Shown here in pieces: positions 9,181 through 64,000 of a stretch of 64,000 nt of DNA. Each line of letters begins with the position of its first letter. Position 1 is the first letter of the stretch. A model generated the notes under the pieces. The model was not told where the DNA came from. It ran no database searches and saw only the letters and a list, made by a program, of their open reading frames with translations. The translations under genes and the position numbers were made by a program. Origin of the DNA: Candidatus Omnitrophota bacterium (GTDB taxonomy: Bacteria; Omnitrophota; Omnitrophia; Omnitrophales; Aquincolibacteriaceae); NCBI GenBank assembly GCA_023247055.1, contig JAHFHF010000002.1:16710-80709 (forward strand). Direction: 5' to 3'.

Positions 9181-9483
<303 letters not shown>

Positions 9484-29403: not shown

Positions 29404-29568
29404 TGTCATTCGATGACGCTGTGTCATTCCCGCCTCTGCGTGGAAGCCGAGACTGTCATGCGCAGCGCTGTTGGCGCTGTGTCATTCCCGCCTCTGCGTG
29501 GAAGCCGAGACTGTCATGCGCAGCGCTGTTGGCGCTGTGTCATTCCCGCAAGTTTTTGGCGGGAATCT
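29404..29568. repeat. Type-1 repeat: a partial unit, two 58-bp units, and a terminal hairpin that overlaps the mfd stop
   Basis: Units start at 29422 and 29480; hairpin tgtcattcccgc-aagtttttg-gcgggaatc at 29538-29568. Confidence 0.8.
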
Positions 29569-31474
29569 TAGGAACTTTGTCCCCTTGCTCTTCCTGAACT
29601 GCCTGGCGCAGCATGCGGCAATAGAGATCAAAACCGACCGCATGAATAAAGCCGCTTTGTTCATGGCCCAGAATATTGCCTGCCCCGCGGATTTCCAGAT
29701 CTTCCATGGCAATTTTGAAACCCGACCCAAGCTCGGTAAAACGTTCGATCGCCGCTAGACGCTTTTCAGCATCCCGCGTCAAAACCCAGTTTTTAGGCAC
29801 CAGAAAATACGCATAGGCCTGGCGCTTCTCGCGGAAGCGCCCGACGCGGCCGCGCAGCTGGTAAAGATCGGCCAGACCAAAGGCGTCCGCGCGGTTGACA
29901 AAGATCGTATTGACGTTAGGAATGTCGAGTCCCGACTCAATGATGTTGGTCGACAAAAGACAGTCGAGTTTTTGTTCCATAAAAGCTTTCATCACGGCCT
30001 CGAGTTCCTGCGGATCCATTTGGCCGTGCGCCACGCCAAAGCGCACATCCGGCATGAGTTTTACAAGCTGAGCATGGATTTTTTCGATGGAAGCCACGCG
30101 GTTATGCACAAAATAACATTGGCCGCCCCGTTCAAATTCGCGGCGCATGCCCTGCACGATCCGCTGGTCGCTGTATTCAAGCACATACGTTTCGACCGCA
30201 AGGCGGTTCTTCGGCGGTGTATTGATCACCGACATGTCGCGCACACCCATCAAGGACAAATAAAGCGTGCGCGGAATCGGCGTGGCAGTCAGCGTCAACA
30301 CGTCCACCACGGCACGGTATTTTTTTAATTTTTCTTTATGCCGTACGCCAAAGCGCTGCTCTTCGTCAATCACGACCAGGCCAAGATCTTTAAACTGGAC
30401 ATCTTTGGAAAGCAAACGGTGCGTGCCGATCAAAATATCAACGGCCCCTTCACGGGCCGCGCGCATGATGCCCAGCTGTTCCCTGCGCCCGCGAAAACGC
30501 GACAAGACTTCCACGGTCACAGGGAAAGTGCGCAGCCGCTGTTTTAGAACCAGGTAATGCTGCTCCGCCAGCACGGTGGTAGGCACTAAAATCGCCACTT
30601 GCCTGCCGCCTGTCACCGCTTTAAACGCCGCGCGCATGGCCACCTCGGTTTTACCGTAGCCCACATCGCCGCAAAGCAGGCGGTCCATGGGTTTCGCCGA
30701 TTCCATGTCCGCTTTGACTTCGCTAATGGCCGTCGCTTGGTCCGGCGTTTCTTCAAAAGGAAACTCCGCTTCAAATTGGCTTTGCCACTCTTGGTCTTTG
30801 GGAAAAGCAAAGCCCTTTTCAACGCTGCGCTTTGCCTGCACTTCGAGCAGATCGCGCGCGACCGATACCACGGCCCGGCGCGTGCGTTCCTTGACGCGCT
30901 GCCAATCTTTCGTATGAATGCGGGTCAGTTTCGGGGCGTACCCCTCGCCGCCGATATAGCGCTCGAGCGGCTCATGCATGTCAAAGTACAAGATTTCACG
31001 GTCCGCATATTCCACGGCCAGATGCCGTTTGCGCTGGCCTTTGATTTGAATGGTCTTGGTACCCAGAAAACGGCCAATCCCGTATTCCAAATGCACGACA
31101 TAATCGCCCGCCTTCAAATCGGTGCTGTCGCTGAGCGATTCAAAGGCTTCGAATTTTTCGCGCAGGCGCGAAATTTTTTTACGGAAGGGGTCTGTGACGG
31201 GAAGGATAAAAACTTCTTCGAAAACCGTATAAACTTGGCCGTCGACGGGAGAAAAATCCCGGATTGAGACCAGACGATCGGCCTCAAATTCCAGCCGCAC
31301 CGGCGAGCGGTAGGTCACGGGGTAAATATCCAGAGTCGCGCCGCGCAGGCTAAACTCACCCGGATGCGCCACAAAATCTTTTTTTTCGTAATGCAGATTG
31401 AAAACAAAATCCTCAAGGGCTGCGCGGGGAAAAGAGTCGCCGACTTTTAAAACTTTGGGGGAATGGGAGTTCAT
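29540..31474 (-). CDS. mfd: Transcription-repair coupling factor, short form (RNAP-interacting domain D4 plus the D5/D6 translocase core; no D1a/D2 N-terminal region and no D7)
   Basis: 644 aa; RID-like [11 protein letters not shown]...; helicase motifs [26 protein letters not shown] and QLRGRVGR; the last 10 codons ([10 protein letters not shown]) are read from the repeat hairpin. Confidence 0.78.
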
Positions 31475-37938: not shown

Positions 37939-39293
37939 CAGCGCCGGGCCTTCAGCTTTCCTTTTTTGACAAAACCTTCATAGTGGCGCATCAAAAGCTG
38001 AGACTCGATCTGTTTCATCGTGTCCAAAATCACACCAACGATAATGAGAAGTCCCGTGCCGCCAAAAAAGCTGGCGATCAAAAAAGGAATGTTCAAAAGT
38101 TTTGGCGACGAAATAATTTGCGGGAACAGCGCAATGATCGCCAAAAAAACAGCCCCGCTTGCCGCAATGCGGGTCATGACATAATCCAGATATTCCGCCG
38201 TATTTTTTCCCGGCCGGATGCCCGGAACAAACCCGCCGAACTTCTGCAGATTTTCACTGACCTCAATGGGATTAAACGTAATCGCCGTATAAAAGAATGT
38301 GAAAAATAAAATCAAAAGGGCGTATAAAATCGAGTGCGCCGCCTGTCCCGGCGCCAAAGAATGAGCGGCCTGCGTTAAAAAGCCGGCGCCCGGAAAAAAC
38401 CCGGCAATCGTCGCGGGAAAAAGAATCACGGACTGCGCAAAAATAATCGGAATCACGCCCGCCTGATTAACTTTAAGCGGCAAAAACGTATTTTGCCCGC
38501 CATACATGCGATGCCCGCGGATCTGCTTGGCATACTGCACGGCAATCTTGCGCTGCCCCTGAATAATGAGAATAACGCCGACAACGGTGCCTATGAACAA
38601 AGCAATCATCAGCGCAAACTTCCACCAGGCCAATTCCTGCCGGCTCGAATCAAACGGCGAAAGCAGCAAAAATGTCTGCCACAGAGCCGTTGGAACGGAT
38701 TCGATAATACCCGCCGTAATCACAATCGAAATACCGTTACCGATGCCGTACTGATCGATTTGTTCACCCAGCCACATGATAAAGGCGGTGCCCGTCGTGA
38801 GAGTCAGCATGGTCATGAGGCGGAAGCCCCAGCCCGGATTCGGCACGATCACCGTTCCCTGAAACGCATTTGGATTTTCCAGCCAAAGCGAAATGAAAAA
38901 CGTCTGGATCAATCCCAGAATGACCGTGCCGTAGCGCGTATACTGAATGATTTTTTTACGGCCTTCTTCACCTTCTTTGGCCATTTTCTCAAGCTGCGGA
39001 ATGACGACGGTCAACAGCTGTAAAATAATGGACGCCGAGACGTAGGGCATAATGCCCAGCGCAAAGATGGTCGCCTTCTGCAGGGCGCCGCCTGAAAACA
39101 TTCCCATAATGCCAAAGAGCGTTCCGCCCGGAGTGTGCGAAATGCTTTGAAAAAACCGCGCCAGCGCCGTGCCGTCAATACCGGGCGTTGGAACGTAAGC
39201 ACCAATCCGGTATACAATGATAATGGCGAGCGTAAAAAGCACTTTCGCGCGCAAGTCCGGAATCTTGAAAATATTCGTATATGCTTTTAACAT
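37938..39293 (-). CDS. secY: Preprotein translocase subunit SecY
   Basis: 451 aa; 10 TM segments. Confidence 0.95.
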   Translation of the reverse strand: MLKAYTNIFKIPDLRAKVLFTLAIIIVYRIGAYVPTPGIDGTALARFFQSISHTPGGTLFGIMGMFSGGALQKATIFALGIMPYVSASIILQLLTVVIPQLEKMAKEGEEGRKKIIQYTRYGTVILGLIQTFFISLWLENPNAFQGTVIVPNPGWGFRLMTMLTLTTGTAFIMWLGEQIDQYGIGNGISIVITAGIIESVPTALWQTFLLLSPFDSSRQELAWWKFALMIALFIGTVVGVILIIQGQRKIAVQYAKQIRGHRMYGGQNTFLPLKVNQAGVIPIIFAQSVILFPATIAGFFPGAGFLTQAAHSLAPGQAAHSILYALLILFFTFFYTAITFNPIEVSENLQKFGGFVPGIRPGKNTAEYLDYVMTRIAASGAVFLAIIALFPQIISSPKLLNIPFLIASFFGGTGLLIIVGVILDTMKQIESQLLMRHYEGFVKKGKLKARR

Positions 39294-46884: not shown

Positions 46885-47535
46885 TTACTCAGCTTTTGCG
46901 GTTTGAGCCGCGCCCACGGCCGCTTCAAGAACCGGCAGAGCGTCTTCTTCGATAATTAATTTCGTCCGGCGCAGCACATGATAAGCATTCAGGTCTGCAG
47001 CTTTGCGCACTCTCACCCACTCGCTCATATTCCGGCTGGCGCGTTTCAGCGGCTCACCGAAATCTTTCACCACGCACAAAGTGCTTTTGCCTTGAACCGG
47101 CAGCGCTGAAAAAAGTTTGACGAGCTCTTTGGTTTTTCCGTTCTGTGACTGGACCGCTTCTAAGACAACGATGTTGTTTTCGCTCGCACGCAGCGAAAGC
47201 GCCGAAACCAAGGCTTGTTTTTTCATGCCCTTCGGCAGATTCACGTAGTAACTGCGAGGGTGCGGACCAAAAACCGTGCCGCCGCCGCGCCAAACTGGAG
47301 AGCGGGTGGAGCCGGCACGCGCACGGCCTGTACCCTTTTGCTTCCAGGGTTTCTTGCCACCGCCGCGCACATCTTTGCGCGTTTTGGTCTGGGCAGTGCC
47401 ATGGCGCAAATTGGCGGCAAAGGCCTTGTTCACAAGAGCCAGCAGACGCTTATTGACGCGCGCGCCAAACAACGCGGCGCTAAGCTCGACGTCTTTTTGC
47501 TTTTTTCCCTCTTTAGAGTAAAGGGGTACCTTCAT
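46885..47535 (-). CDS. rplD: 50S ribosomal protein L4
   Basis: 216 aa. Confidence 0.94.
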   Translation of the reverse strand: MKVPLYSKEGKKQKDVELSAALFGARVNKRLLALVNKAFAANLRHGTAQTKTRKDVRGGGKKPWKQKGTGRARAGSTRSPVWRGGGTVFGPHPRSYYVNLPKGMKKQALVSALSLRASENNIVVLEAVQSQNGKTKELVKLFSALPVQGKSTLCVVKDFGEPLKRASRNMSEWVRVRKAADLNAYHVLRRTKLIIEEDALPVLEAAVGAAQTAKAE

Positions 47536-47565
47536 AAATTTAAATTTTCCTCAGTTCGTCAAATT

Positions 47566-48279
47566 TTAAGATTGAACGGCCGCGGTTTCGGAACCGGTCT
47601 GGCTGGCATCCGTCTTCAATTTCCACTTACGCCCTTTGGCGGGTCTTTTCAAAGCCATTCTTACCACAAGGCACGTGCCTTCAGCGCCGGGGACCGCACC
47701 GCGCAAAGCTAGAATGCTTTGCTCGGAATCGACTTTGACGACAGCCAAATTTTGGACCGTAATCAGATCCTGCCCCATATGCCCAGGCAAACGCTTTCCC
47801 TTGCGAACTTTTTTCCGGCAGCCATTGCCGCCGGCGCGCGAACCGATACCACCCGGCTCACGTCCCATTTTTGTACCATGGGCGCCGTAACCGCCTTTGA
47901 AATGATGGCGTTTGACAACACCCTGAAAACCTTTTCCGATTGAAACGCCGGAGACATCCACATAATCACCCGGCTGAAACATGCTGACATCAACCGCTTT
48001 AGCGAGATCCACGCCTTCAACTTCGTCCGTACGGATTTCGCGCACAAACCGCATCGCCGGCAAGTGCAGCTTTTTAGCGGCGCCAAGTTCGGCTTTATTC
48101 GCATGCTTTTCTTTGAGCGGATCCAATCCAAGCTGGACTGCGGAATAACCCTCTTTGTCCTTCTTGCGCAGCGCCGTCACATGGCAGGAAGTCGCATCGA
48201 TCAGGGTGACGGGGACTTGGCGGCCCTCTTCATCAAAGATCTGCGTCATGCCAATTTTTTTTCCAAGCAATCCGATCAT
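47566..48279 (-). CDS. rplC: 50S ribosomal protein L3
   Basis: 237 aa. Confidence 0.95.
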
Positions 48280-48587
48280 AACTTGATTTCCACATCCACA
48301 CCGGCCGGCAGATCTAGTTTCATCAAGGCATCAACCGTACGGGACGTGGGCTCCTCAATCGCAATAAGACGTTTGTGTGTTCTGACTTCAAATTGATCGC
48401 GGGACTTTTTATCAATCGTCGGACCGCGCAGCACGGTGGTCTTCCAGATCTGCGTCGGAAGAGGAACCGGCCCGATCACTTTGGCGCCCGTGCGTTTGGC
48501 CGTTCCCACAATTTCAAGAACCGACTGGTCCAAAATGCGGTGGTCATACGCTTTGAGTTTAATTCTGATTTTTTCTTTAACGGCCAT
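48276..48587 (-). CDS. rpsJ: 30S ribosomal protein S10
   Basis: 103 aa. Confidence 0.95.
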
Positions 48588-48594
48588 AGGTCCC

Positions 48595-50679
48595 TCAGCT
48601 TACCATGATTTTTTCAGCGATTTGACGAGGCACTTCCTGGTAGCTGTTAGGCTCCATGGAGTACGTTGCCCGGCCCTGAGAAAGGGAGCGCGTCGCCGTT
48701 GCGTAACCAAACATTTCGGCCAAAGGCACAAGACCCTTAACCGTTTTCAAATGGCCTTTGTTCGCCATTTCCTGAATGATGCAGCGGCGGGAATTTAAAT
48801 CGCCAATAATGTCGCCCATATACTCATCGGGAACGACAACTTCGACCAGCATCATCGGCTCCAGAAGAACGGGCTTTGCCTTTCTGAAGGCTTCTTTAAA
48901 ACCAAGAATACCCGCCATCTTAAAAGCAATTTCGGAAGAGTCGACGTCGTGGTAGCTGCCGTCTGTCACCGTGGCCTTCACGTCCGTCACTGGATAACCC
49001 GCCAACACACCATTCGTACAGGCATCCATCACACCCGCTTCAACCGCCGGGATGTATTCACGAGGAATCGAGCCTCCCACTGTTTCGTTGACAAACTCAA
49101 TGCCTTTGCCGCGTTCAAGCGGCTCGATCTTAATGTAGCAATGACCGTACTGACCGCGGCCGCCGGTTTGTTTGATAAATTTACCTTCGGCTTCGGCACC
49201 GGCTGTAATCGTCTCGCGATACGCGACCTGCGGCTTACCCACATTAAGCAAAACGTTATATTCGCGTTTCATAATGTCCGTTTTAATATCAAGATGCAAT
49301 TCACCCATGCCGCCGATCAAGGTTTGGCCGGTTTCATGGTCGCTGCGTACACAGAACGTCGGGTCTTCCGCAACAAGACGCGTAATGGCTTCGGACATAC
49401 GATCACGGTCCGCTTTGGTTTTGGGCTCAACCGCCATCCAAATAACCGGCTCAGGAACGAACAAGGATTCCAATACAATCGGTTTATCTTCCACGCAAAG
49501 CGTGTCGCCCGTTTTAATTTCTTTCAGCCCGACGGCCGCCACGATATTTCCCGCGCCCGCCTCTTCGATTTATTCGCGTTTGTTTGAATGCATTAAAAGC
49601 AAACGGCCGATACGTTCTGTCCGGCCGTTGCGGGGATTGTAAACATAAGAACTTGAGGAAAGAACACCTGCATAGATGCGGATAAATGTAAGAGAACCGA
49701 CGAATTTATCGCTTGCGATTTTGAAGGCAAAACACGTCAAAGGCTCAGATTCAGAAGCTTTACGTTCAATGGCCAGGTCTTCTTTGCTGGGATCCATGCC
49801 CTTCGTCGGCGGCACATCCAAGGGAGAGGGCAGATAATCGACGACGGCATCTAAGAGCTGCTGAACGCCTTTATTTTTCAAGGCTGAGCCGCAAATGACG
49901 GGCGTCATCTTAAGCGCAATAGTCACCCGGCGGATCCCCGCTTTAAGTTCCTCGTTTGTCGGCAGCTGGCCTTCGAGATATTTATTCATAATCGCGTCAT
50001 CGAGTTCCGCGACTTTTTCAACCAAATGTTCACGGGCCTTTTTGGCTCTTTCGACTTGATCTGCGGGAATTTCAACCACGTCAAACTTGGCGCCAAGCGA
50101 ATCATCTTGGAAAATAATGGCTTTCATGAGGATAAGATCAATGATACCGATGAACAAATCTTCTTTACCCACATTGAGTTGAATCGGAACCGCATTTGCA
50201 CCCAACTGATCCTTCATTTGCTGCACGTTTTCTTCGAAGCGGGCGCCCGTACGGTCCATCTTATTGATAAATGCAATACGAGGAACATTGTAACGGTCGG
50301 CTTGACGCCAAACTGTTTCAGACTGGGGCTCTACACCTTCCACTGCGCCAAAAACGGCTACACAGCCATCCAGCACGCGCAGAGAACGTTCAACTTCAAT
50401 CGTAAAATCCACGTGGCCGGGAGTATCGATTAGATTAATGCGGCAATCTTTCCAAAAGCAAGTCGTCGCAGCGGACGTAATCGTGATGCCTCGTTCCTGC
50501 TCTTGCTCCATCCAATCCATAACTGCCGTACCTTCGTGCACTTCGCCGATTTTGTACGTGCGGCCGGTGTAATAAAGGATGCGTTCGCTCGTCGTGGTTT
50601 TACCGGCATCAATGTGCGCAGCAATTCCGATATTGCGAATGCGTTCAATGGGAAAATGGATTTTTTTGTCGTCGCTCAT
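48595..50679 (-). CDS. fusA: Elongation factor G, reading frame interrupted by a single in-frame TAA at 49570-49572
   Basis: The two track ORFs (49570-50679, G domain; 48595-49542, domains II-V) are in the same frame (50679-49542 = 1137 = 3x379). Joined, they give a 694-aa EF-G reading ...[25 protein letters not shown]..., with the stop at a conserved Glu codon. Confidence 0.85.
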
Positions 50680-50720
50680 AAAAAACTTCTATTCCTTAAA
50701 AATAAATTTTTCTAAAAATC

Positions 50721-51188
50721 TTACCAGCGGTAATGCGCAAAAGCCCGGTTCGACTCGGCCATCTTGTGCACGTCTTCACGCTTTTTCACAGACGAGCCGG
50801 TCTTTTGATAGCTGTCTAAGATTTCCTGCGCAAGTTTCACCCGCATGGGCTTTCCCTTGCGCTCGCGGGAATACTGACGAATCCAGCGCAGGGCCAGCGT
50901 GTAACCGCGGTCAGGTCTGACACTTACAGGGACCTGATAAGTTGCACCACCCACCCGGCGCGATTTGGTCTCAAGCAAAGGGCGGACATTATCTACTGCC
51001 TGCTTTAAAACTTCAAGAGGTTCTTTTCCGGTTTTCTCTTTGACGATTTCCATCATCCCATAGACAATACCCTGAGCAGTGGACTTTTTGCCTCTTTCCA
51101 TAACAATATTGATCAATTTAGCGATCAATTTGTCATTATAAATCGGATCCGGCAATATTTTACGTTTCGGTGCGCTGCGTCTTCTCAT
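50721..51188 (-). CDS. rpsG: 30S ribosomal protein S7
   Basis: 155 aa. Confidence 0.95.
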
Positions 51189-51208
51189 GAGTTCTTAGAC
51201 CTCGTCCT

Positions 51209-51589
51209 TTAGGTTTTTTTAGGCGTCTTAGCGCCGTACTTGGAACGTGAACGGTTACGGCCGGCCACGCCGGTCGCATCCAGTTTTCCGCGCACGATGT
51301 GATAACGAACGCCGGGAAGATCTTTCACACGGCCTCCGCGCACGAGCACAATCGAGTGTTCTTGAAGATTATGTCCGACACCGGGAATGTATGCGGTCAC
51401 TTCCTGGCCGTTGGTCAAACGTACGCGCGCAATTTTACGCAGCGCCGAGTTTGGTTTTTTGGGCGTCTGAGTTCTGACGATCAAACAAACGCCTTTGCGA
51501 AACGGACAGTTTTGCAGGGCCGGCGATTTGGTTTTATTGCTAAACCGCCGTCTGCCTTTACGAATTAATTGATTGATGGTCGGAGCCAT
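51209..51589 (-). CDS. rpsL: 30S ribosomal protein S12
   Basis: 126 aa; conserved [10 protein letters not shown]; the start overlaps the rpoC stop. Confidence 0.95.
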
Positions 51590-54500
51590 TAGGCTTTCTC
51601 CTTTGCTTCTTGCGGCGCTTCCGCTGCTTTTGAAACATCAGGCAGAATTTCCGAAATTTCTTTTTTCATCTGGATTTGGCGGTGCTCCATGAAACCGGTT
51701 CCTGCCGGAATCAAGTGCCCCATGATGACGTTTTCTTTCAAGCCGAGCAGTTCGTCGCGCTTGCCGGCAGAAGCCGCTTCCGTCAAGACGCGCGTTGTTT
51801 CTTGGAAACTCGCGGCTGAAATAAAACTTTCGGTTGTCAGCGATGCCTTAGTAATACCGAGCAGAACCGCCGTCGCTTTTGCCGGCTCCTTACCCTTCTT
51901 GAGCATGGCCGCATTTTCCTGACCGAATTTGATTTTGTCAATGTGTGCGCCGACCAGGAATTCCGTATCGCCCGGATCTTCAATGCGCACTTTGCGCAGC
52001 ATCTGACGCACGATGATTTCCACGTGCTTGTCGTTGATCTTCACGCCCTGAAGCCGGTAAACTTCTTGGACTTCATTGACGAGGTATTCTTGCAAGCTGC
52101 GTTCCCCGGAAACCCGCAGAATATCCTGAGGAACCACGGGGCCGTCCACAAGCTGCTGGCCCGCGACCACCCGGTCACCTTTATAAACGTTCAGGTGTTT
52201 GCCATGCGGGATCAGATATTCTTTTTCCATGCCCGCGGAACTCTTGACCAAGATTTTTCTCTGGCCCTTGACCACATCACCGATCTCGACAATGCCGTCA
52301 ATTTCGGAAATGATCGCTGGGTTTTTGGGTTTGCGGGCTTCAAAAACTTCGGCTACACGCGGCAGACCGCCCGTGATATCGCGGGTTTTAGCAACTTTAC
52401 GCGGCGTTTTGGCAAGCAGAGTACCGCTGGTCACATCCTGACCGTCTTTGACCACAATATGCGCGCCCACCGGAATCGGGTAGAACGCCAGAATTTCTTC
52501 GCTGGCTCCGACAATAAGCAACTGCGGATGGAGTTCTTCGCGGTGATCCACAATCACGCGCTCGACCATACCCGTCGTGGCATTCATTTCTTCGTTCATG
52601 GTCACGCCCGCTTTGATGTCTTCAAAGCGAACCTTACCGGAAAGTTCCGTGAGAATCGGGACCGTATACGGGTCCCATTTCACAAAAATGTCGTCCTTCT
52701 TAACTTCCTGGCCGTCCTTCGTGCTGATGATCGCGCCTGAAGGAATCGTATAACGTTCCAACTCGCGGCCGCTCTGGTCCTGGATCGTCAACTGGCCGTT
52801 ACGATTCAAAACGATAATTTCGTTCTTGGTCGTAACAACAGTTTTCAGATTGTGATACTGCAGAAGGCCGCCGTTTTTGGCACGAAAATAGGATTGTTCA
52901 ACGATGTTGGACGCCGTACCGCCGATGTGAAAGGTCCTCATCGTCAGCTGCGTCCCAGGTTCGCCAATCGACTGGGCAGCGATAATACCGACCGCCGTGC
53001 CAAGTTCGACCATGCGGCCCGTTGAAAGATCGCGGCCATAGCATTTAGCGCAGCAGCCGCGGGTTGATTCACAGGTCAGCACCGAACGGATACGGATTTT
53101 TTCGATTCCAACTTCGTCCAAGCGGTCAGCAATTTTTTCATCGATGACTTCGCCCGACTTGACGATCAACTGATCGGTCACGACGTCGACGACGTTGTCC
53201 AGCGGAACGCGGCCCAAAATGCGGTCGCGCAGCGCCACGATCACTTCTTCGCCTTCGTACATCGGTTCGATAAAGATACCGCTCAAAGTTCCGCAGTCGT
53301 CCTCAGTCACGATCACATCTTGTGAAACGTCGACGAGACGGCGGGTCAAATAACCGGAGTCGGCAGTTTTGAGCGCCGTGTCTGCAAGGCCTTTGCGGGC
53401 TCCGTGCGTCGAGATGAAATACTCAAGCACGGTCAGACCTTCACGGAAATTGGCCGTGATCGGGCTTTCGATAATTTCCCCTGACGGCTTCGCCATCAAA
53501 CCGCGCATACCGGCCAGCTGACGAATCTGCTGTTTGGAACCACGCGCGCCGGAGTCAGCCATCATGAAAATCGGATTAAAAGAATCAAACATCGAAAACA
53601 TGCTGTCGGAAACAAGGTCCGTGACATGGGTCCAGATGTCGATGATTTTGTTGTAGCGTTCACCGGCCGTGATAATACCGTTGCGGTATTGGCTTTCGAT
53701 CGCCTGGACTTCTTTACGCGCATCGGTCAGCAGTTTCTCTTTCGTTGCTGGAATCTGGATATCGTCAATGCCGATGGAAATACCGGCTCGCGTCGCTTCT
53801 TCAAAACCAAGCGCCTTGAGGCGGTCCAACAGCAAGATAACTTCGCTATGACCGAATTGGCGGTAGCACTGGGCAATAATCTTCGCCAGCTTACCCTTGT
53901 CTATAACCTCGTTCACATAGCGGAAACCCTTGGGCAGAACTTGGTTGAATATAATGCGGCCCAGCGTCGTTTCGATGATCGAACCGTCCGCAACGCGCAA
54001 TTTACATTTGGCATGCTTGTGGATCTCTTTATCCTGATATGCAAAAATCGCTTCTTCGGCATCGGCAAAAACTGTTCCTTCGCCCTGCATCTTGTCCGCG
54101 ATTTTGGTGAGGTAGTAGATACCAAGCACGATGTCCTGCGAAGGCGTCGTAATCGGATTGCCGCTGGCAGGCGAGAAAACGTTGTTGGCAGAAAGCATAA
54201 GCACCCAGCATTCCATTTGCGCTTCCATAGACAACGGAACGTGAACGGCCATCTGGTCACCGTCAAAGTCGGCGTTAAACGCAGCGCAGACCAGCGGATG
54301 AATACGGATGGCTTTGCCTTCGATCAAGACAGGCTCGAACGCTTGAATACCGAGACGGTGCAGCGTCGGCGCGCGGTTCAGAAGCACCGGATGCTCCCGG
54401 ATAACTTCTTCAAGAATGTCCCAGACTTCGGGTTTGACGCGCTCGACCATTTTCTTGGCCGAACGGATCGTGTGGACATGGCCGCGTTCTTTGAGCTTGC

Positions 54501-55632
54501 GGATAATGAAAGGTTCAAAAAGTTCCAGCGCCATTTTCTTGGGAAGACCGCATTGGTGCAATTTGAGTTCCGGCCCAATGACGATGACGGAACGGCCGGA
54601 ATAGTCGACGCGTTTACCGAGAAGGTTCTGGCGAAAACGGCCCTGCTTACCTTTGAGCATGTCGCTCAAAGATTTCAGCGGGCGGTTGCCGGAACCGAGC
54701 ACCGGGCGGCCATGGCGGCCGTTGTCAAAAAGAGCATCAACGGCTTCCTGCAGCATGCGCTTTTCATTGCGGATAATGACGTCCGGAGCTTTCAAGTCGA
54801 GCAGTTTCTTCAACCGGTTATTACGGTTGATGACGCGGCGGTAAAGGTCGTTCAAATCGCTGGTGGCAAAACGGCCGCCGTCCAAAGCCACAAGCGGGCG
54901 CAGGTCCGGCGGAATCACCGGGACCACATCCAGAATCATCCATTCAGCCTTATTGCCGGATTTGCGGAAAGCATCCGCAATTTTAAGAATCTTAATCGCG
55001 CGGGCACGGGCCTGCTTCGACTTGGAAGTCTTGACCTGGCGCTGATATTTCGTCGCCATTTTGTCGAGTTCTAATTCTTTTAAAAGATCGCGCACGGCTT
55101 CGGCGCCCATCTTGGCGACAAAACTCGTGGAACCGTATTGCTCCTGGGCCTTGTGATAATCCTCTTCGGTCAAAAGCTGGGATTTTTTAAGCGGCGTTTC
55201 TTTGGGATCAATCACGATATATTCTTCGTAATACAAGACCTTTTCCAAAGCACGTACGCTGATATCCAGCAAATTACCGATGCGCGAAGGCATGGTCTTA
55301 AAAAACCAGATGTGTGAAACCGGCGTCACAAGCGCGATATGCCCCATGCGCTCACGGCGAACGCGTGACTGCGTGACTTCGACGCCGCAGCGGTCGCAGA
55401 CAATGCCCTTATGCTTAATGCGCTTGTACTTTCCACAGCTGCATTCGTAGTCGCGGGTCGGTCCAAAAATTTTCTCACAGAAAAGCCCGTCTTTTTCCGG
55501 CTTCAGCGTGCGGTAGTTAATGGTTTCCGGCTTCTTGACTTCGCCGCGGGATAATTCGTAAATCGACTCGGGAGACGCAATCCGGATGGTTACGGAGTCA
55601 AACATGTTGATGTCATAGTCTATGCTGCTCAT
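51589..55632 (-). CDS. rpoC: DNA-directed RNA polymerase subunit beta'
   Basis: 1347 aa; zinc finger CxxC...C..C; NADFDGD catalytic motif. Confidence 0.97.
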
Positions 55633-58600
55633 GCTTGCAATTTCTCCTTGGCTCTTTGTTTGCGTTCTTCAGCGCTGTTCTGCTGCGCATCATTCGTCCG
55701 GGCGGCGAGAAGAGTACGCTCTTTACCCGCCTGTGTTTTTTCCGGCATGATGTTAAGGGCAAGCGCCTGCAGTTCCTTCACAAGCACGTTAAATGATTCG
55801 GGGGTGCCCGCATGCAGCGCCGGCTCTCCCTTGACGATGGCCTCATATACGCGGGTGCGGCCGACCACGTCGTCGCTCTTCACGGTCAAAAGCTCTTGCA
55901 GCGTGAAAGCAGCGCCATAAGCTTCAAGCGCCCACACTTCCATTTCACCGAAACGCTGTCCGCCGAACTGCGCCTTGCCGCCCAAAGGCTGCTGCGTCAC
56001 AAGCGAGTAGGGACCGATGGCTCGGGCATGGATCTTGTCATCCGCCAAATGGGCCAGCTTAAGCATATAGATGTAGCCCACCGTAACGCGCTGGTCAAAT
56101 CTTTCACCCGTACGGCCGTCGTAAAGCTCAGTCTTGCCATCTTCAGGTAGATTTGCTTTGCGTAAATAGTCGCGAATTTCTTCTTCCGTTGCGCCGCTGA
56201 AAACCGGCGTTTCAATTTTGACGCCAAGCGCTTGAGCTGCCCAGCCCAAATGCGTTTCCAAAATCTGTCCGACGTTCATACGCGAGGGCACGCCCAGCGG
56301 ATTGAGAATGATCCCCACGGAGGTTCCATCCGGAAGATACGGCATGTCTTCTTCCGGCAGAATGCGGGCAATCACGCCTTTGTTTCCATGGCGGCCGGCC
56401 ATTTTATCGCCCACGGAGATCTTGCGCTTGGAGCAAATATAAGCCACGACTTTCTTGATGACGCCTGGAGGAAGTTCATCGCCTTTTTTGACGCGCTCGA
56501 CTTCACGCGTTCTTTCGCCGATCAGTTCATCGATTTCATCGCCCCACACACGGGCCACTTTACGAATGCTTTCTTCGACTTCCGGCTCATCTTCGAGGCG
56601 GATAGAATCCCAATCGCACTCTTCGAATTTTTTCAAGTCAGGCTTCGTGATCACCTTACCGGCCTTGATCAAAATCTCGCCCAAGATATCATCAAGCAGA
56701 TCTTCGGCCAATTTTTTGCCCACGATCAAATCTGTGACCTTGTTGATGCGCTCGCGCTTAAGCACGTCGATGCGGTGCTGATAGCGGTCTTTGATTTCGT
56801 TGATGGCTTTATTTTCATCGCGCCGTTCTTCACGCGTCTTAGAGGCTGATTCCTTGCGCGCGAAAACTTTGACGTCGACTACGATCCCTTCCACGCCCGG
56901 CGGCACGGTCAAAGATGCATCGCGCACATCGCCGGCTTTTTCGCCAAAAATCGCGCGCAGCAACTTTTCTTCGGGGGAAAGTTCGGTTTCGGATTTCGGA
57001 GTAATTTTTCCGACCAGAATGTCGCCTGGTTTTACTTCGGCGCCGATGCGGATAATCCCCTCTTCATCCAAATCCTTCAAAGCCTCTTCGCTGACATTCG
57101 GAATATCGCGCGTAATTTCTTCATTGCCCAGCTTCGTGTCGCGCGCTTCGATTTCGAACTCTTCAATGTGCAGGGACGTATACACGTCTTCTTTGCAGAA
57201 TTTCTCACTAACAATGATCGCGTCCTCGAAGTTGTAGCCGCGCCAAGGCATAAAAGCCACAAGCACGTTGCGTCCTAGCGCTAACTCACCTGCGTCTGTT
57301 GCCGTGCCATCTGCAATAATGTCGCCGCGCTTTACTTTATCGCCCAATGCAACCAAAGGACGCTGGTTAATACAAGTGCCGGCATTGGAACGTTCGAATT
57401 TTTTAAGACGGTAACTCAGGTCATCAACAACGATTTCGGTCGAACTGACGGCCGTGACCGCGCCTTTGGCTTTCGCTACAATTGTAGCGCCTGAATCTTT
57501 GGCCACATGGTATTCCATGCCCGTGCCCACATACGGAGATTCCGTAATCATCAAAGGAACGGCTTGGCGCTGCATGTTCGAACCCATGAGCGCACGGTTG
57601 GCGTCGTCATGTTCAAGGAACGGAATCAGCGACGCAGCCACGCTGACCAACTGACGCGGCGAAACGTCCATATAGTCAATTTCCGTAGGTTTCTTTTTGG
57701 GGAAATCACCACGGCAGCGGCACGAAACCAAATCATCGACAAACCGGCCCTTTTCATCCAAACGCGCATTGGCCTGCGCGATAACATACTTGTCTTCCAT
57801 ATCCGCAGTCAGGTAGTCGATCTTGTCCGTGACCTGGCCTTTTTCGACCTTGCGATACGGACTTTCCAAAAAACCGATCGAGTTGACGCGGGCAAAGGTG
57901 CTGAGCGAAGCGATCAAACCAATGTTCGGACCTTCCGGCGTTTCAATTGGGCAGATACGGCCGTAGTGCGAAGGGTGTACGTCGCGCACTTCAAAACCAG
58001 CGCGTTCGCGCGACAAACCACCGGGGCCAAGGGCCGACATACGGCGCTTGTGCGTCAGTTCGGCCAAAGGATTGGTTTGATCCATAAACTGTGAAAGCTG
58101 GCTGCGGCCGAAGAAATCCTTAATCGCCGCCGAAATCAGTTTAGGATTGATCAAGTTGTGCGGCATCGCAGCATCCAGATCGTAAATTGACATTCTTTCT
58201 AGGCAAGAGCGCTTCATACGGGCCAGTCCCACGCGGAACTGATCCTGAAGCAGTTCGCCGACGGAACGGACGCGGCGGTTGCCAAGATGGTCGATATCGT
58301 CAACCTGAAGATCGCCGATACGCAATTTCAGCAGCACCGAAACCACTTGAATTACGTCTTCTTTGCGCAGCGTGGTTTGCTTCAGATCGGCATCAAAACC
58401 CAATTTGCGGTTGAGCATGAACCGGCCGACTTTACCGAGTTCATAGCGCTGGGGATCAAAAAATAATTTGTGGATTAAATCTTTGGCGCTGGCTTCCGTC
58501 GGAGGATCGCCCGGACGCATGCGGCGGTAGATAGCAATCTGGGCATCCAGCGCACTTTGATAAGGGTCGCGCTCAAGCGTGTTAAAAATCGACACGTCAT

Positions 58601-59423
58601 CGACCTTGGCCTTGACCACGGAAATAGAACTAACTTTATTGGACTCGAAAACCTGCAGGGTTTCTTTGGTAATCTTGGATCCCGCGGTCGCAATAGGCTC
58701 TTTGCTTTCCGCATGCAGCACATCCGCTGCCAAATAACGGCCTTCTGTTTTGGCAAAGGAATTTTTACTGATGTCTTCGATTTCAAAAATGTTCTTGAGA
58801 ATATCGGCCGTCGTTGAAAAGCCAATGGCACGAAGGAGGGTCGTGGCCAGGATTTTTCTGCGGCGGTCAATATAGGCATACAGAACATCGTTGATGTCCG
58901 ACTCGAATTCAATCCACGCGCCGCGGTGCGGAATGATGCGAACGCTGAAGATGCGCTTGCCGCTTGCATGCAGGCTCTGCTCGAGCGAAACGCCCGGCGA
59001 ACGGTGCAATTGGCTGACCACCACACGCTCGGCGCCGTTAATAATAAACGTACCCACTTCGGTCATAAGCGGCAGGTCGCCGATATAGACTTCCTGCTCT
59101 TTGACAACGCTGCCGCGCAGCAAGCGGATTTTCACTTTGAGCGGCGCTGCATACGTCATCCCGCGCTTGTGGCATTCGGGAATGGAGTACTTGGGTTTAC
59201 CGAGCGAATAGCTGTCGTACTCAAGACGGCAAGAACCGTCAAAACTCTCAATAGGAAAACAATCCTGAAAAACTGCTTCAAGCCCCTGCCTTTTACGGCG
59301 GCGCTGGGAACGATCTGTCTGAAGAAATTCTTCATAGGACCGGACCTGAATTTCCACGAGATTCGGCATTTCCATCGTGTCGCGGATTTTCGTCAGGCTT
59401 TTACGGGTTCTTACAGGAATCAT
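55629..59423 (-). CDS. rpoB: DNA-directed RNA polymerase subunit beta
   Basis: About 1264 aa; start taken at the ATG at 59423 (MIPVRTRK), preceded by GGGAGG; the stop overlaps the rpoC start (ATGA). Confidence 0.96.
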
Positions 59424-59504
59424 AGGCCAATTGCCTCCCATTAATCGTTCTGAACTATCGCAACAAAGGGTCTTGAATACCCTTCGTAATACTCTTCAAA
59501 TACT

Positions 59505-59628
59505 TATCATTCTCGCCTCGGCATGGAAGCCGAGACTATCATGCTCAGCGCTGTTTGCTCCGTGTCATTCCCGCATGCTTTAGGCGGGAATCTAACTCGC
59601 TAGATCCCCGCCAAAAACATGCGGGGAT
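59505..59628. repeat. Degenerate type-1 unit, the terminal hairpin, and an inverted related hairpin, in the rplL-rpoB spacer
   Basis: tatcattctcgcctcggcatggaagccgagactatcatgc...; hairpin 59563-59592; second hairpin atccccgc-caaaaacat-gcggggat at 59603-59628. Confidence 0.65.
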
Positions 59629-59658
59629 AACCATCAAACTACTACCGCAATTTGATGG

Positions 59659-60081
59659 TTACTTGATCTCGACTTTAGCGCCCTGCTCTTCGAGAATTTT
59701 CTTGATCTTGTCAGCTTCTTCTTTGGTGACGCCTTGCTTGACCATCTTCGGCGCGCCCTCAACCAAGTCTTTGGCTTCTTTCAAGCCCAAGTTGGTGACG
59801 GCACGAATCTCTTTAATCACCTGGATCTTCTTGTCACCGGCACTGGCTAAAATAACATCAAAGGCCGTCTTTTCTTCGACGGCTGCCGCACCGCCTGCTG
59901 CACCGCCGCCTGCGGGCGCTGCAACGGCCACGGCCGCCGCTGCTGAAACACCAAAACGCTCTTCAAGCGCTTTGACCAGTTCGGCTAATTCCAGAACCGT
60001 CAATTCTTCGATCGTTTTCAAAACTCCCTGAAGCTTGGCCGAAAGACTTTTGCCCGCTTCCACTGCTGTTTCGTTTGACAT
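59659..60081 (-). CDS. rplL: 50S ribosomal protein L7/L12
   Basis: Start at MSNETAV (ATG 60081) with RBS AAGGAGGG; Ala/Gly hinge; conserved CTD. Confidence 0.93.
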
Positions 60082-60136
60082 GTTACCCTCCTTGAAATTT
60101 ACTAAATAACCGGAATTGAATTTTCCGGAACTGTTT

Positions 60137-60673
60137 TTAAGATGCCGCGCCTTCTTTTTTCTTTTTGATTTCATTCAGCGCTACGGCAAACCCTCTCAAT
60201 ACTTGGTTGAGAGTCATGACAAATCCCGAAATCGGGGACTTCATACGGACGACCACTTGCGTCAAGAGTTCTTGCCGGGACGGCAGCAAAGCCAGCGACT
60301 TGATGAACTGCTGGTCATAGAGTTTCTTTTCAAATACAACGGCACGGGGCACAAATTTTTCGTTTTTCTTGGCGAAATCAACAATGGCTTTAGAAATGGT
60401 TTGCGGCGCACCTTCGCCAAACGTAATCAGGACATGCCCTTTGAGATAAGAATCAATTTCACCTAAAGACAAATTCGCGAATGCTTTGCGGGCTAGCGTG
60501 TGCTTGACGACCAACGACCGCGTAGAAACCTTGCCCAGCGAACGGCGCAATTCAGCCAAAGCTTCCAATGGAAAATTCTCAAAGTTAGAAATGAACGCAT
60601 ACGGGCTTCCTGTCAGCTCGCGCTCGATTTCCCTCAACATGATTTCTTTGACCGGCGATACAGCAGTTCTCAT
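60137..60673 (-). CDS. rplJ: 50S ribosomal protein L10
   Basis: Start at MRTAVSP (ATG 60673), only 7 nt after the rplA stop. Confidence 0.88.
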
Positions 60674-60680
60674 GACAACC

Positions 60681-61373
60681 TCACAACAGGGACGGGGCCA
60701 GCGGAACACCCGGGCCTTGCGTCGGCGCAATCGTTACTTTTCTGAGAAAATCACCTTTACTAGACGCAGGCTTGGCATCCCGGACCGCTTTGATAACGAC
60801 CCGCGCATTTTCCAGCAGCGCACTTTCTGAAAATGAAATTTTTCCGCAGACCGCATGCAGGCCGCCGGTCTTATCCGTTTTGAACTCAATGCGGCCGGCT
60901 TTCAATTCTTTCACCGCGCGCCCGATATTCGGCGTCACAGTCCCCGTCTTAGGCGACGGCATCAGGCCTTTAGGGCCCAAAACGCGGCCAAGTTTACTGA
61001 CTTCACGCATCATGTCCGGATGGGCCACCAGCGCATCAAAATCAAGCCAGCCGCCCTGGATTTTCGCGACCAAATCTTCAGCACCGACGGCTTCTGCGCC
61101 TTCGGCTTCCGCTTCACGCGCGCCTTCTCCTTTGCAAATACAGACCACACGAAGTTTTTTTCCGCTGCCATGCGGCAGGCTGACCGTGCCACGGATCATC
61201 TGATCGCTCTGGTCCGCTTTGATACCCAGCTGAAAATTAATCGAAATGGTCTCATCGAACTTATTGCCCTTGACCTGCTTGATGGCCTTGAGGGCGTCTT
61301 CCAAACTATAGGACTTGGAAGAATCCACCAACTTCTTGCGATCCTGCATGCGTTTGCTGATTTTACTGTTCAT
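60681..61373 (-). CDS. rplA: 50S ribosomal protein L1
   Basis: Start at MNSKISK (ATG 61373); about 230 aa. Confidence 0.9.
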   Translation of the reverse strand: MNSKISKRMQDRKKLVDSSKSYSLEDALKAIKQVKGNKFDETISINFQLGIKADQSDQMIRGTVSLPHGSGKKLRVVCICKGEGAREAEAEGAEAVGAEDLVAKIQGGWLDFDALVAHPDMMREVSKLGRVLGPKGLMPSPKTGTVTPNIGRAVKELKAGRIEFKTDKTGGLHAVCGKISFSESALLENARVVIKAVRDAKPASSKGDFLRKVTIAPTQGPGVPLAPSLL

Positions 61374-61383
61374 AATTTTGTCC

Positions 61384-61809
61384 TTACCCAACCACTTCAA
61401 GACCCATGCTGCGCGCGGTTCCTTCAACGATCTTGATGGCCGCATCCAACTTGAGCGTGTTCATGTCTTCCATTTTTCCGCGAGCGATGTCACGCACTTG
61501 ATCACGGGTGACTTTTCCAATAATGTGCCGGCCCGGCTCTGATGAAGCTTTGGCAAGTCCAGCCGCTTTTTTAAGTACGCTGGCCACGGGCGGGGACTTT
61601 AAAATAAACGTGAACGATTTATCCTTGTAGACGGTCAGCACGACCGGAAGTGTTTCACCAGCACGGGCCTTGGTGCGCTCATTGAACTGCTTGCAAAATT
61701 CCATGATGTTAACGCCGTGTTGACCAAGCGCCGGACCGATCGGAGGTGCCGGATTGGCCTGCCCTGCGGAAATTTGCAATTTAATGCGCGTTTGAATTTC
61801 TTTTGCCAT
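61384..61809 (-). CDS. rplK: 50S ribosomal protein L11
   Basis: 141 aa; conserved [17 protein letters not shown]. Confidence 0.95.
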
Positions 61810-61837
61810 AGCTGCTTTTCCTTAAAATTTTAAGCCC

Positions 61838-61919
61838 TGTCATCCCGAATCCGCCGAAGTTTTAGCGGCGGGTGAAGGATCTCAACCCTGAGATTCTTCG
61901 CTTCGCTCAGAACGACAAA
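61838..61919. repeat. Type-3 repeat (second copy, opposite orientation) in the nusG-rplK spacer
   Basis: tgtcatcccgaa...gtgaaggatctcaaccctgagattcttcgc...tcagaacgacaaa; the termini are inverted relative to the 31494 copy. Confidence 0.65.
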
Positions 61920-61925
61920 TTAAAA

Positions 61926-62474
61926 TTATATTTTTTCCACTTGCCAGTACTCGAGTTCAACCGGCGTGGAACGTCCAAAAATAGTGACCATGACTTTGAG
62001 TTTGCCGCGGTCAGGATTAATTTCTTCAATCGTGCCGTTGAAGTTCGCGAAAGCGCCTTCTTTAACGCGCACATTCTCACCAATGGAAAACTCGACTTTC
62101 GGCTTGGGCTTCGTCGTTTTTTCTTCCTGCTGATTCAGAATCTGCGAGACATCCTGATCAGAAAGCGGAATCGGATTTTTTCCCGAACCGACGAATCCGG
62201 AAATGCCCGGCGTGTTTTTGACCAGATACCAGCTGTCATCCGTCAGATCCATCTGCACCAGAATGTACCCGGGGAAAAACTTACGTTCTGAAATTCTTTT
62301 TTTGCCGGAGCGCACTTCGCTGACCTTCTCCGTCGGCACCAGCACTTGGTGAATCAAATGCTTCATGCCGGCCAGTTCAGCCCGGCTTTCCAAATTTGCT
62401 TTCACCCGCGACTCAATGCCCGTCTGAGTGTGAATCACATACCATTTGTGGTCAGTCATTTGCATATCATCCAA
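61926..62474 (-). CDS. nusG: Transcription termination/antitermination factor NusG
   Basis: NGN domain (KWYVIHTQTG) plus KOW; the start may be one of the ATGs between 62459 and 62474. Confidence 0.92.
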   Translation of the reverse strand: MDDMQMTDHKWYVIHTQTGIESRVKANLESRAELAGMKHLIHQVLVPTEKVSEVRSGKKRISERKFFPGYILVQMDLTDDSWYLVKNTPGISGFVGSGKNPIPLSDQDVSQILNQQEEKTTKPKPKVEFSIGENVRVKEGAFANFNGTIEEINPDRGKLKVMVTIFGRSTPVELEYWQVEKI

Positions 62475-62652
62475 TCAAAAGGCGCATGATAATGGAGAGT
62501 ACAGAATCCACCGCGCCGATAAAAACCGCTAAAATACCCGTCGTAATAATGACAACGGCTGTGGCCTGCCAAAGTTCTTCGCGCGTGGGCCAGGTGACCT
62601 TGTTGAGTTCCTGCTTTGTTTCTTTAAAAAAATTTCCTACGCCACCCAACAT
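62467..62652 (-). CDS. secE: Preprotein translocase subunit SecE
   Basis: 61 aa; single TM. Confidence 0.88.
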   Translation of the reverse strand: MLGGVGNFFKETKQELNKVTWPTREELWQATAVVIITTGILAVFIGAVDSVLSIIMRLLIG

Positions 62653-62671
62653 GCTCTCCGTCCTTTGTTAA

Positions 62672-62749
62672 TGGCAGGCCTGGCAGGATTCGAACCTGCA
62701 ACATGCGGTTTTGGAGACCGCCGCTCTAGCCAGTTGGAGCTACAGGCCT
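62672..62749 (-). tRNA. tRNA-Trp (anticodon CCA)
   Basis: Minus-strand AGGCCTGTAGCTC...GGTCTCCAAAACCGC...GCAGGTTCGAATCCTGCCAGGCCTGCCA; cloverleaf with loop CTCCAAA. Confidence 0.85.
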
Positions 62750-62763
62750 CCGCCAGCGTCCTG

Positions 62764-62913
62764 CTACTTTTGTTCTTTATGCGGTGTATGCTTGCGGCAA
62801 AACCGGCAATATTTTTTCAGTTCAAGCCGATCCGGCGTATTCTTCTTGTTCTTACGCGACGAATAGGTTTTGCGCTTACAATCGAGACACGCGAGGATAA
62901 TAATGTCCCTCAT
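62764..62913 (-). CDS. rpmG: 50S ribosomal protein L33
   Basis: [49 protein letters not shown]; four Cys in a zinc ribbon; below the size cutoff of the ORF track. Confidence 0.88.
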
Positions 62914-63017
62914 AAAACGTCACTTCCTTAACATGCAATTTAGATAGTCCAGGCTTCTTGCAATACACAAAGCCTGGAAAGCTCGCCAGGGAGATTTAAC
63001 TCGGACAGGGCTCGCTG

Positions 63018-64000
63018 CTACTGGATAATCTGGTTGACGACACCGGCACCCACGGTTTTACCGCCTTCGCGGATGGCAAAACGGAGCTCTTTTTCCATAG
63101 CAATCGGCGCAATGAGCTCTGCTTCAACTTCCACGTTGTCACCAGGCATCACCATTTCGGTGCCTGCGGGCAGCTTCACGACTCCGGTCACGTCGGTCGT
63201 GCGGAAATAAAACTGAGGACGATACCCATTGAAGAAAGCCGTATGACGGCCGCCTTCTTCTTTGCTCAAGATGTAAACCTGCGCTTTAAACTTGGTGTGC
63301 GGAGTGACGCTGCCCGGGGCAGCGATAACCATACCGCGCTCAAGCTGATTTTTTTCAACGCCGCGCAGCAGAAGTCCGACGTTATCGCCTGCCCGGCCGT
63401 CATCCAGCAGCTTACGGAACATTTCTACGCCCGTGACTGTTGACTTCAGCGGCAGTTTTTGAAAACCAACCACTTCGACTTCCTGGCCAACCTTAATAAT
63501 ACCGCGCTCAATACGGCCGGTAGCAACCGTTCCACGGCCGGAAATTGAGAACACGTCTTCGATAGGCATAAGAAAAGGCTTATCGATATCGCGCTTCGGT
63601 TCCGGAATGCTTTCATCCAGCGCCTTGAGCAAATTCATGATCGGCTCAATTGCTTTGGGATCCGTCGGATTGGTGGCTGCCGCTAATCCTGAACCGCGAA
63701 TGATCGGAATCGTATCGCCGGGGAAATCATACTTCTTCAGAAGATCGCGCACTTCGAGCTCAACGAGATCGAGAAGTTCTTTGTCTTCCACGGCATCCAC
63801 CTTATTCAGGAAGACGACGATCGCCGGCACGCCAACCTGGCGGGCAAGCAAAATGTGTTCGCGCGTCTGAGGCATAGGGCCGTCAAGCGCCGACACAACG
63901 AGGATAGCGCCGTCCATCTGTGCCGCACCCGTGATCATGTTCTTAATATAGTCCGCATGTCCCGGGCAGTCCACGTGAGCATAGTGGCGTTTGTCGGAAC
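63018..64000 (-). CDS. tuf: Elongation factor Tu (N-terminus beyond the window end)
   Basis: [28 protein letters not shown]...; the frame continues past 64000. Confidence 0.95.

Follow-up and report, generated by a model that had tools for sequence, protein, structure and literature searches.

A single in-frame TAA in the fusA gene of an Omnitrophota contig is probably a consensus error private to one deposited assembly

Bacterial elongation factor G (EF-G) is encoded by fusA, and in the 64,000-nt stretch of Omnitrophota DNA analyzed here (the window), this gene is interrupted by one in-frame TAA. The stop is present in the public deposit, absent from the only other assembly that covers the site, and without evolutionary conservation. 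On the basis of these sequence comparisons, we propose that the TAA is probably (at a probability of roughly 0.6) a technical consensus or assembly error private to one deposited assembly. Most likely, the stop is not a new biological feature, and it matches a known class of spurious internal stops.

The fusA frame lies on the minus strand at 48595 to 50679 and comprises 695 codons, counting both the internal TAA and the TGA at its end, as assigned by translation and by the NCBIfam EF-G model TIGR00484. The internal stop is codon 370 (49570 to 49572, minus strand), which is GAA (Glu) in a sister assembly. Around the stop, the minus strand reads CAT TCA AAC AAA CGC GAA TAA ATC GAA GAG GCG (H S N K R E, stop, I E E A), and the base change is a coding-strand G-to-T substitution (GAA to TAA), equivalent to C-to-A at plus-strand position 49572. 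The N-terminal piece (49570 to 50679, minus strand; 369 aa), which is annotated separately in the deposit, contains the G domain, G', and about two-thirds of domain II. The C-terminal piece (48595 to 49542, minus strand; 315 aa), a mechanically called ORF, starts at an internal GTG that corresponds to Val380 of the intact protein and contains the remainder of domain II plus domains III to V. The initial annotation had placed one in-frame TAA at a conserved glutamate codon and had described two ORFs, one for the G domain and one for domains II to V, that share a frame and are separated by a single-base change rather than a frameshift. The profile bears this description out, since TIGR00484 matches the N-terminal piece over profile positions 5 to 363 (568 bits) and the C-terminal piece over positions 365 to 686 (486 bits). 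The stop takes up exactly one profile position, with no indel and with both pieces in one frame; either piece alone scores below the equivalog cutoff of 659 bits, and both together span the profile.

Pfam analysis of the intact sister protein (P0121) delimits all five EF-G domains (GTP_EFTU 12-285, EF-G_D2 314-396, EFG_III 408-481, EFG_IV 483-602, and EFG_C 604-690) and places codon 370 inside domain II, within both EF-G_D2 (residues 314 to 396) and GTP_EFTU_D2 (residues 328 to 395). The same protein aligns end to end with the Thermus thermophilus EF-G structures (1dar), with a score of 931 bits. Domain IV of EF-G is indispensable for translocation. Since a product terminated at the TAA would end after residue 369, without domains III to V, the allele as deposited would be null, and it would be lethal if fusA were present in a single copy. 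Among all possible single-base substitutions in fusA, 22.7% are computed to be synonymous and 3.5% nonsense. Because about 3.5% of substitutions create a stop, a single nonsense change is statistically unremarkable and is notable only for the gene affected.

The surroundings of the gene are those expected. Directly upstream lies rpsG (50721 to 51188, minus strand), preceded by rpsL (51209 to 51589, minus strand); both end in TAA and were assigned from gene calls and Pfam matches on the sister loci. Directly downstream, rpsJ (48276 to 48587, minus strand; Pfam Ribosomal_S10), the exact product of which occurs on four other contigs, marks the start of the S10 operon. The window fusA resembles canonical bacterial EF-G genes in its profile match, in its five domains, and in its str-operon context rpsL-rpsG-fusA; it differs from them in having TAA instead of GAA at codon 370 in the window assembly. 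As a member of the EF-G family it is ordinary, and its gene context, rpsL-rpsG-fusA-rpsJ, is the usual one in the phylum. The absence of tuf after fusA, which had also been pointed out, is correct: the EF-Tu gene, identified by translation, is located at 63018 to 64000 on the minus strand, where it is cut by the window end and continues beyond 64000, upstream of tRNA-Trp, secE, nusG, rplKAJL, and rpoBC. At the corresponding sister locus (L090), a full 399-aa EF-Tu is followed by rpmG, secE, and nusG. Unlike the canonical str operon, in which tuf lies downstream of fusA, this arrangement is common to the relatives. As rpsJ directly follows fusA in the relatives too, the separation of tuf from fusA is the normal gene order in the group.

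Conservation across the family identifies the residue that the stop replaces. The best 120 EF-G matches have Candidatus Omnitrophota at the top, the closest protein being 90% identical, and nearly all of them are full length (680 to 703 aa), two proteins of about 640 aa being shortened at the N-terminal end. By a motif scan, the stop column was readable in 116 of these 120 relatives and holds Glu in 111, Asp in 4, and Arg in 1, the single apparent Arg being a mis-anchored motif match. Four relatives were unmatched by the scan, two of which visibly read ...REEI or ...KEEI. No protein among the best 120 matches is split at the codon-370 site, and two relatives at about 80% nucleotide identity carry GAA at codon 370.

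The evidence that bears most directly on the stop comes from a second assembly of the same population. An exact look-up of the window's rpsL product retrieved the ENA contig ERZ27280021 k141_77297 (65,197 nt; loci L086 and L090). Its offset of about 2.6 kb from the window indicates that it is a separate record. Its identity to the window is 99.905% over 47209 to 55589 and 99.95% over 51384 to 64000, amounting to 99.9% over 16.8 kb overall. There, codon 370 is GAA, and fusA is called as one intact 694-aa gene. The sister EF-G and the window reading are identical at 693 of 694 positions, the stop being the sole difference, so that the window fusA carries neither a second lesion nor a missense change. 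GAA at this codon, the outcome of resequencing that the initial annotation would have read as an artifact, is thus what an independent, 99.9% identical assembly of the same population contains. A sequencing or assembly error, the first of the three options that had been offered, is favored by this intact 694-aa EF-G.

The remaining differences between the assemblies have another character. The 8.4-kb overlap with the sister contig contains eight differences: one is the nonsense change, and the other seven, of which two lie in fusA and five in rpoC, are synonymous and at third codon positions. Without selection, the probability that all seven would be synonymous is about 3e-5, and we therefore regard these ordinary differences as real polymorphisms filtered by purifying selection. 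The comparison was widened to window positions 37.2 to 64 kb using ENA assemblies ERZ27276474 and ERZ27280116 and Logan assemblies SRR14366787 and SRR14366783; the left 37 kb of the window was checked by ORF and Pfam inspection only. The widened comparison adds two synonymous changes (rplK Q30 and secY D370) and one missense change (secY D84Y), which brings the differences besides the nonsense change to 10 over 37.2 to 64 kb, 9 of them synonymous third-position changes and 1 missense. Judged by this pattern, the nonsense change appears to be the only difference that does not look filtered by selection.

The secY variant merits its own description. Codon 84 (window position 39044) is TAC (Tyr) in the window and in Logan SRR14366787 (locus L092) and GAC (Asp) in ENA ERZ27276474 (locus L091). 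No other missense difference was observed in the population. As in fusA, D84Y is a coding-strand G-to-T change at the first codon position. Unlike the fusA change, it is backed by a second assembly.

The records that carry the interrupted gene are few. The exact 369-aa N-terminal fragment (P0243) is on record from NCBI only, on a 134,796-nt contig, and the exact 315-aa C-terminal fragment (P0122; M plus residues 381 to 694) is on record only from the same contig, which also bears the window's rpsG, rpsJ, adk, and rplO. The stop therefore belongs to the public deposit and is not peculiar to the window. The neighboring proteins are on record from ENA and Logan assemblies too, and neither fusA fragment is. 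Exact look-ups of both window-translated fragments in the contig index gave no match, and the cluster look-up placed both under NCBI only. In the 90%-identity protein clusters, the 315-aa NCBI fragment is the representative of the cluster that contains the intact 694-aa ENA EF-G, which is why the intact protein was absent from the first homologue search.

Further searches for the site returned no additional assembly of the population. Besides ERZ27280021, no other assembly spanning codon 370 was found. An exact 26-nt pattern that spanned the codon and left the variable base as N matched one unrelated TARA marine contig (GAA) in the JGI metagenomes and no copy from the population. A genome-contig scan with the joined protein gave, among the matches listed, relatives at no more than 63% identity from other phyla only. 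A protein search with a 217-aa subquery around the stop gave distant EF-G fragments at 54 to 67% identity and none at the population level. Ten partial products guessed for a hypothetical SRR14366787 Logan contig that would bridge window positions 49141 to 50768, which assumed either the presence or the absence of the stop and breaks at three single nucleotide polymorphisms, were not in the collection. Of the best 120 matches to the 217-aa subquery, 22 are EF-G fragments of about 240 to 380 aa for which the longest contig bearing the fragment is more than 50 kb in length (maximum, 4.6 Mb). Public assemblies may therefore repeatedly contain fusA genes annotated as split or truncated.

The region around fusA is also difficult to assemble. 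In ERZ27276474 and SRR14366787, identical or nearly identical contigs end on both sides of the gene, at window positions 48640, 49170, 50720, and 50739. Over 51091 to 55170, the ENA contig ERZ27276474 k141_1110100 (L087) shows only 6 differences from the window, 5 of which are sister alleles. Within rpsG, it shows 100 mismatches in 360 nt (50730 to 51090), a divergence of about 28%, and it ends at the fusA start. This switch in rpsG is either a chimeric assembly join of two related genomes or a recombination boundary. Translation genes that are conserved among co-occurring relatives evidently tangle the assembly graph near fusA, and a wrong consensus call there is therefore more plausible, though unproven. 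A G-to-T error could have arisen from low coverage, from oxidative G-to-T damage, or from an incorrect choice of path or of polished base where related strains tangle the graph. Changes of the G-to-T/C-to-A type are a typical class of oxidative-damage artifacts in Illumina libraries. If the TAA is such an error, the EF-G made in the cells is almost certainly the normal 694-aa protein, with Glu370.

Errors of this kind have precedents. Assembly errors have been shown to account for many of the "pseudogenes" with internal stops in public bacterial assemblies, and such pseudogenes frequently vary between almost identical genomes (Cooley and Wright 2024, BMC Genomics 25:365, PMC11017572). The window fusA resembles the spurious pseudogenes of that study (PMC11017572) in having a single stop in an otherwise perfect conserved gene, an intact counterpart in a near-identical genome, and no other decay. 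It differs from them in that we infer the technical origin of the TAA rather than demonstrate it and in that the record is a metagenome-derived contig, not an isolate genome. Two considerations weigh against an error: short-read consensus substitution errors are rare per base, and the sister, though a very close relative, differs from the window at about 0.05 to 0.1% of sites and may therefore represent another clone, so that the TAA might be a genuine private allele.

The main alternative, which the initial annotation had listed in a form compensated by a paralogue, is a genuine and very recent nonsense mutation in the sampled clone, a possibility that deserves attention but to which we give distinctly less credence. 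The fusA copy would then be a true null allele whose truncated product is unable to translocate, and the clone would be a dead-end lineage or would be rescued by a second EF-G elsewhere in the genome or by polyploidy, with wild-type copies remaining in the cell. In favor of this reading, the deposited record does contain the stop, and the genuine polymorphisms that separate the window from the sister assemblies make it a slightly different genotype. Moreover, the independent confirmation of secY D84Y by the Logan locus L092 means that coding-strand G-to-T changes occur here as real variants. Nevertheless, a lethal allele cannot become the majority in a population, and the str-operon fusA is intact across the best 120 relatives. 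The 693/694 identity, with no further lesion, no missense change, and no sign of relaxed selection, also speaks against a null allele, as does the fact that neither fragment is on record from any ENA or Logan assembly of the population. The initial annotation had reported no second fusA in the window; tblastn of the 64 kb likewise found no other EF-G.

The evidence does not fit a decaying pseudogene, as the two other fusA differences are synonymous and unaccompanied by extra frameshifts, stops, or missense changes. The gene is like the true pseudogenes of decaying genomes in that a premature stop divides its frame into two annotated ORFs, but it differs from them in having flanks identical to those of the intact allele, with no added lesions, and in lying in 64 kb with no other split gene. 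Inspection of ORFs and Pfam matches revealed no other split gene in the window, where mutS and mutL are intact. We further regard as very unlikely a living Omnitrophota clone in which the TAA is the genuine majority allele, so that its only str-operon fusA is interrupted, and which survives through UAA suppression, by a suppressor tRNA or leaky termination, or through an EF-G paralogue that has taken over.

Readings in which the interrupted gene still yields a working product, namely, readthrough, a split protein, and recoding, together account for a few percent in total. The first of these, programmed decoding of UAA, seems very improbable: readthrough or a suppressor tRNA would insert Glu or another residue, and full-length EF-G would still be made. 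The one point in its favor is an in-frame stop in an essential gene with perfectly conserved flanks on both sides. However, the stop is not conserved, codon 370 being GAA in the 99.9% identical sister and no relative having a stop. Readthrough had been another of the options initially offered, and the restriction of the stop to one deposited assembly argues against it. In addition, the TAA-A tetranucleotide ends 3 of the 28 well-supported genes of the window, and the RNA sequence downstream of the stop is the same as in the intact sister. RNA at 49470 to 49600, a 131-nt stretch that surrounds the stop and extends downstream of it, is no better folded than shuffled sequences (z = -0.32), and the stop region matches no Rfam family. 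No tRNA with the anticodon UUA is encoded in the 64-kb window, its only tRNAs being tRNA-Trp(CCA) and an intron-bearing tRNA-Met(CAT). Both release factors recognize UAA, and an abundant factor could not be supplied by spontaneous readthrough, the rate of which is far too low. To our knowledge, no bacterial recoding system exists for UAA. The window fusA shares with programmed recoding (selenocysteine at UGA, pyrrolysine at UAG, or readthrough) an in-frame stop within conserved coding sequence; its codon, in contrast, is UAA, is unconserved even at 99.9% identity, and has no downstream structure. A literature search for Omnitrophota together with "stop codon" returned nothing on recoding, only giant-gene curation.

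A functional split EF-G, in which translation would stop at the TAA and reinitiate at the in-frame GTG (49542) to give polypeptides 1 to 369 and 380 to 694 that assemble, has hardly any claim on belief. The GTG lies 27 nt past the stop and opens the 315-aa ORF, which the annotators of the deposit called as a protein. Yet the break falls within the beta-barrel of domain II, and residues 370 to 379 would be lost. The GTG and the sequence upstream of it are unchanged from the intact sister, where this GTG is Val380, so that it is not adapted as a start. It also lacks a good Shine-Dalgarno sequence (GGGAAATATC-GTG, compared with AAGGAA for fusA and GAGGGA for rpsJ), and no relative is split at this site.

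A change in the genetic code that makes TAA a sense codon is the most farfetched account, having this single codon and nothing further in its favor, and the use of stop codons in the window refutes it: TAA is the commonest stop of the window (38 of 68 greedy ORFs), it ends 16 of the 28 well-supported genes at their expected lengths, including rpsG, rpsL, rpoC, and, as had been noted initially, efp (548 to 1120), and no other conserved gene of the window has an in-frame TAA.

The alternatives are of interest for what they would entail. If the TAA were real and tolerated, it would be remarkable, for it would mean that a bacterium can lose an essential translocase or recode it at UAA; it would offer a snapshot of an essential translation factor undergoing loss or recoding in an ultra-small, possibly host-dependent organism. 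Under the preferred reading of a consensus error, the case is a caution. Splitting EF-G into two annotated proteins (of 369 and 315 aa), as in this deposit, can distort marker-gene completeness, phylogenies, and protein clustering.

Two further features of the window are worth recording. An Mfd/TRCF-like protein of 644 aa is encoded at 29540 to 31474 on the minus strand, with UvrB_inter, CarD_TRCF_RID, DEAD, and Helicase_C domains. It is about half the usual length, the TRCF C-terminal domain not being detected at E < 1e-5, and may be a compact form typical of the phylum or the result of a mis-called start. The other feature is an initiator-like tRNA-Met(CAT) with an intron, at 9181 to 9483 on the minus strand; a fatty-acid desaturase ORF and a response-regulator ORF flank the 557-nt gap in which it lies. 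It is initiator-like in that its acceptor stem is mismatched at the top and its anticodon stem contains GGG/CCC. The anticodon loop holds a 226-nt intron that matches the group I intron model RF00028 of Rfam (9252 to 9459; 58 bits, gathering score 50, E = 4e-12), and the gene was overlooked by the default tRNA scan. In some cyanobacteria, tRNA-fMet is known to be interrupted by a group I intron.
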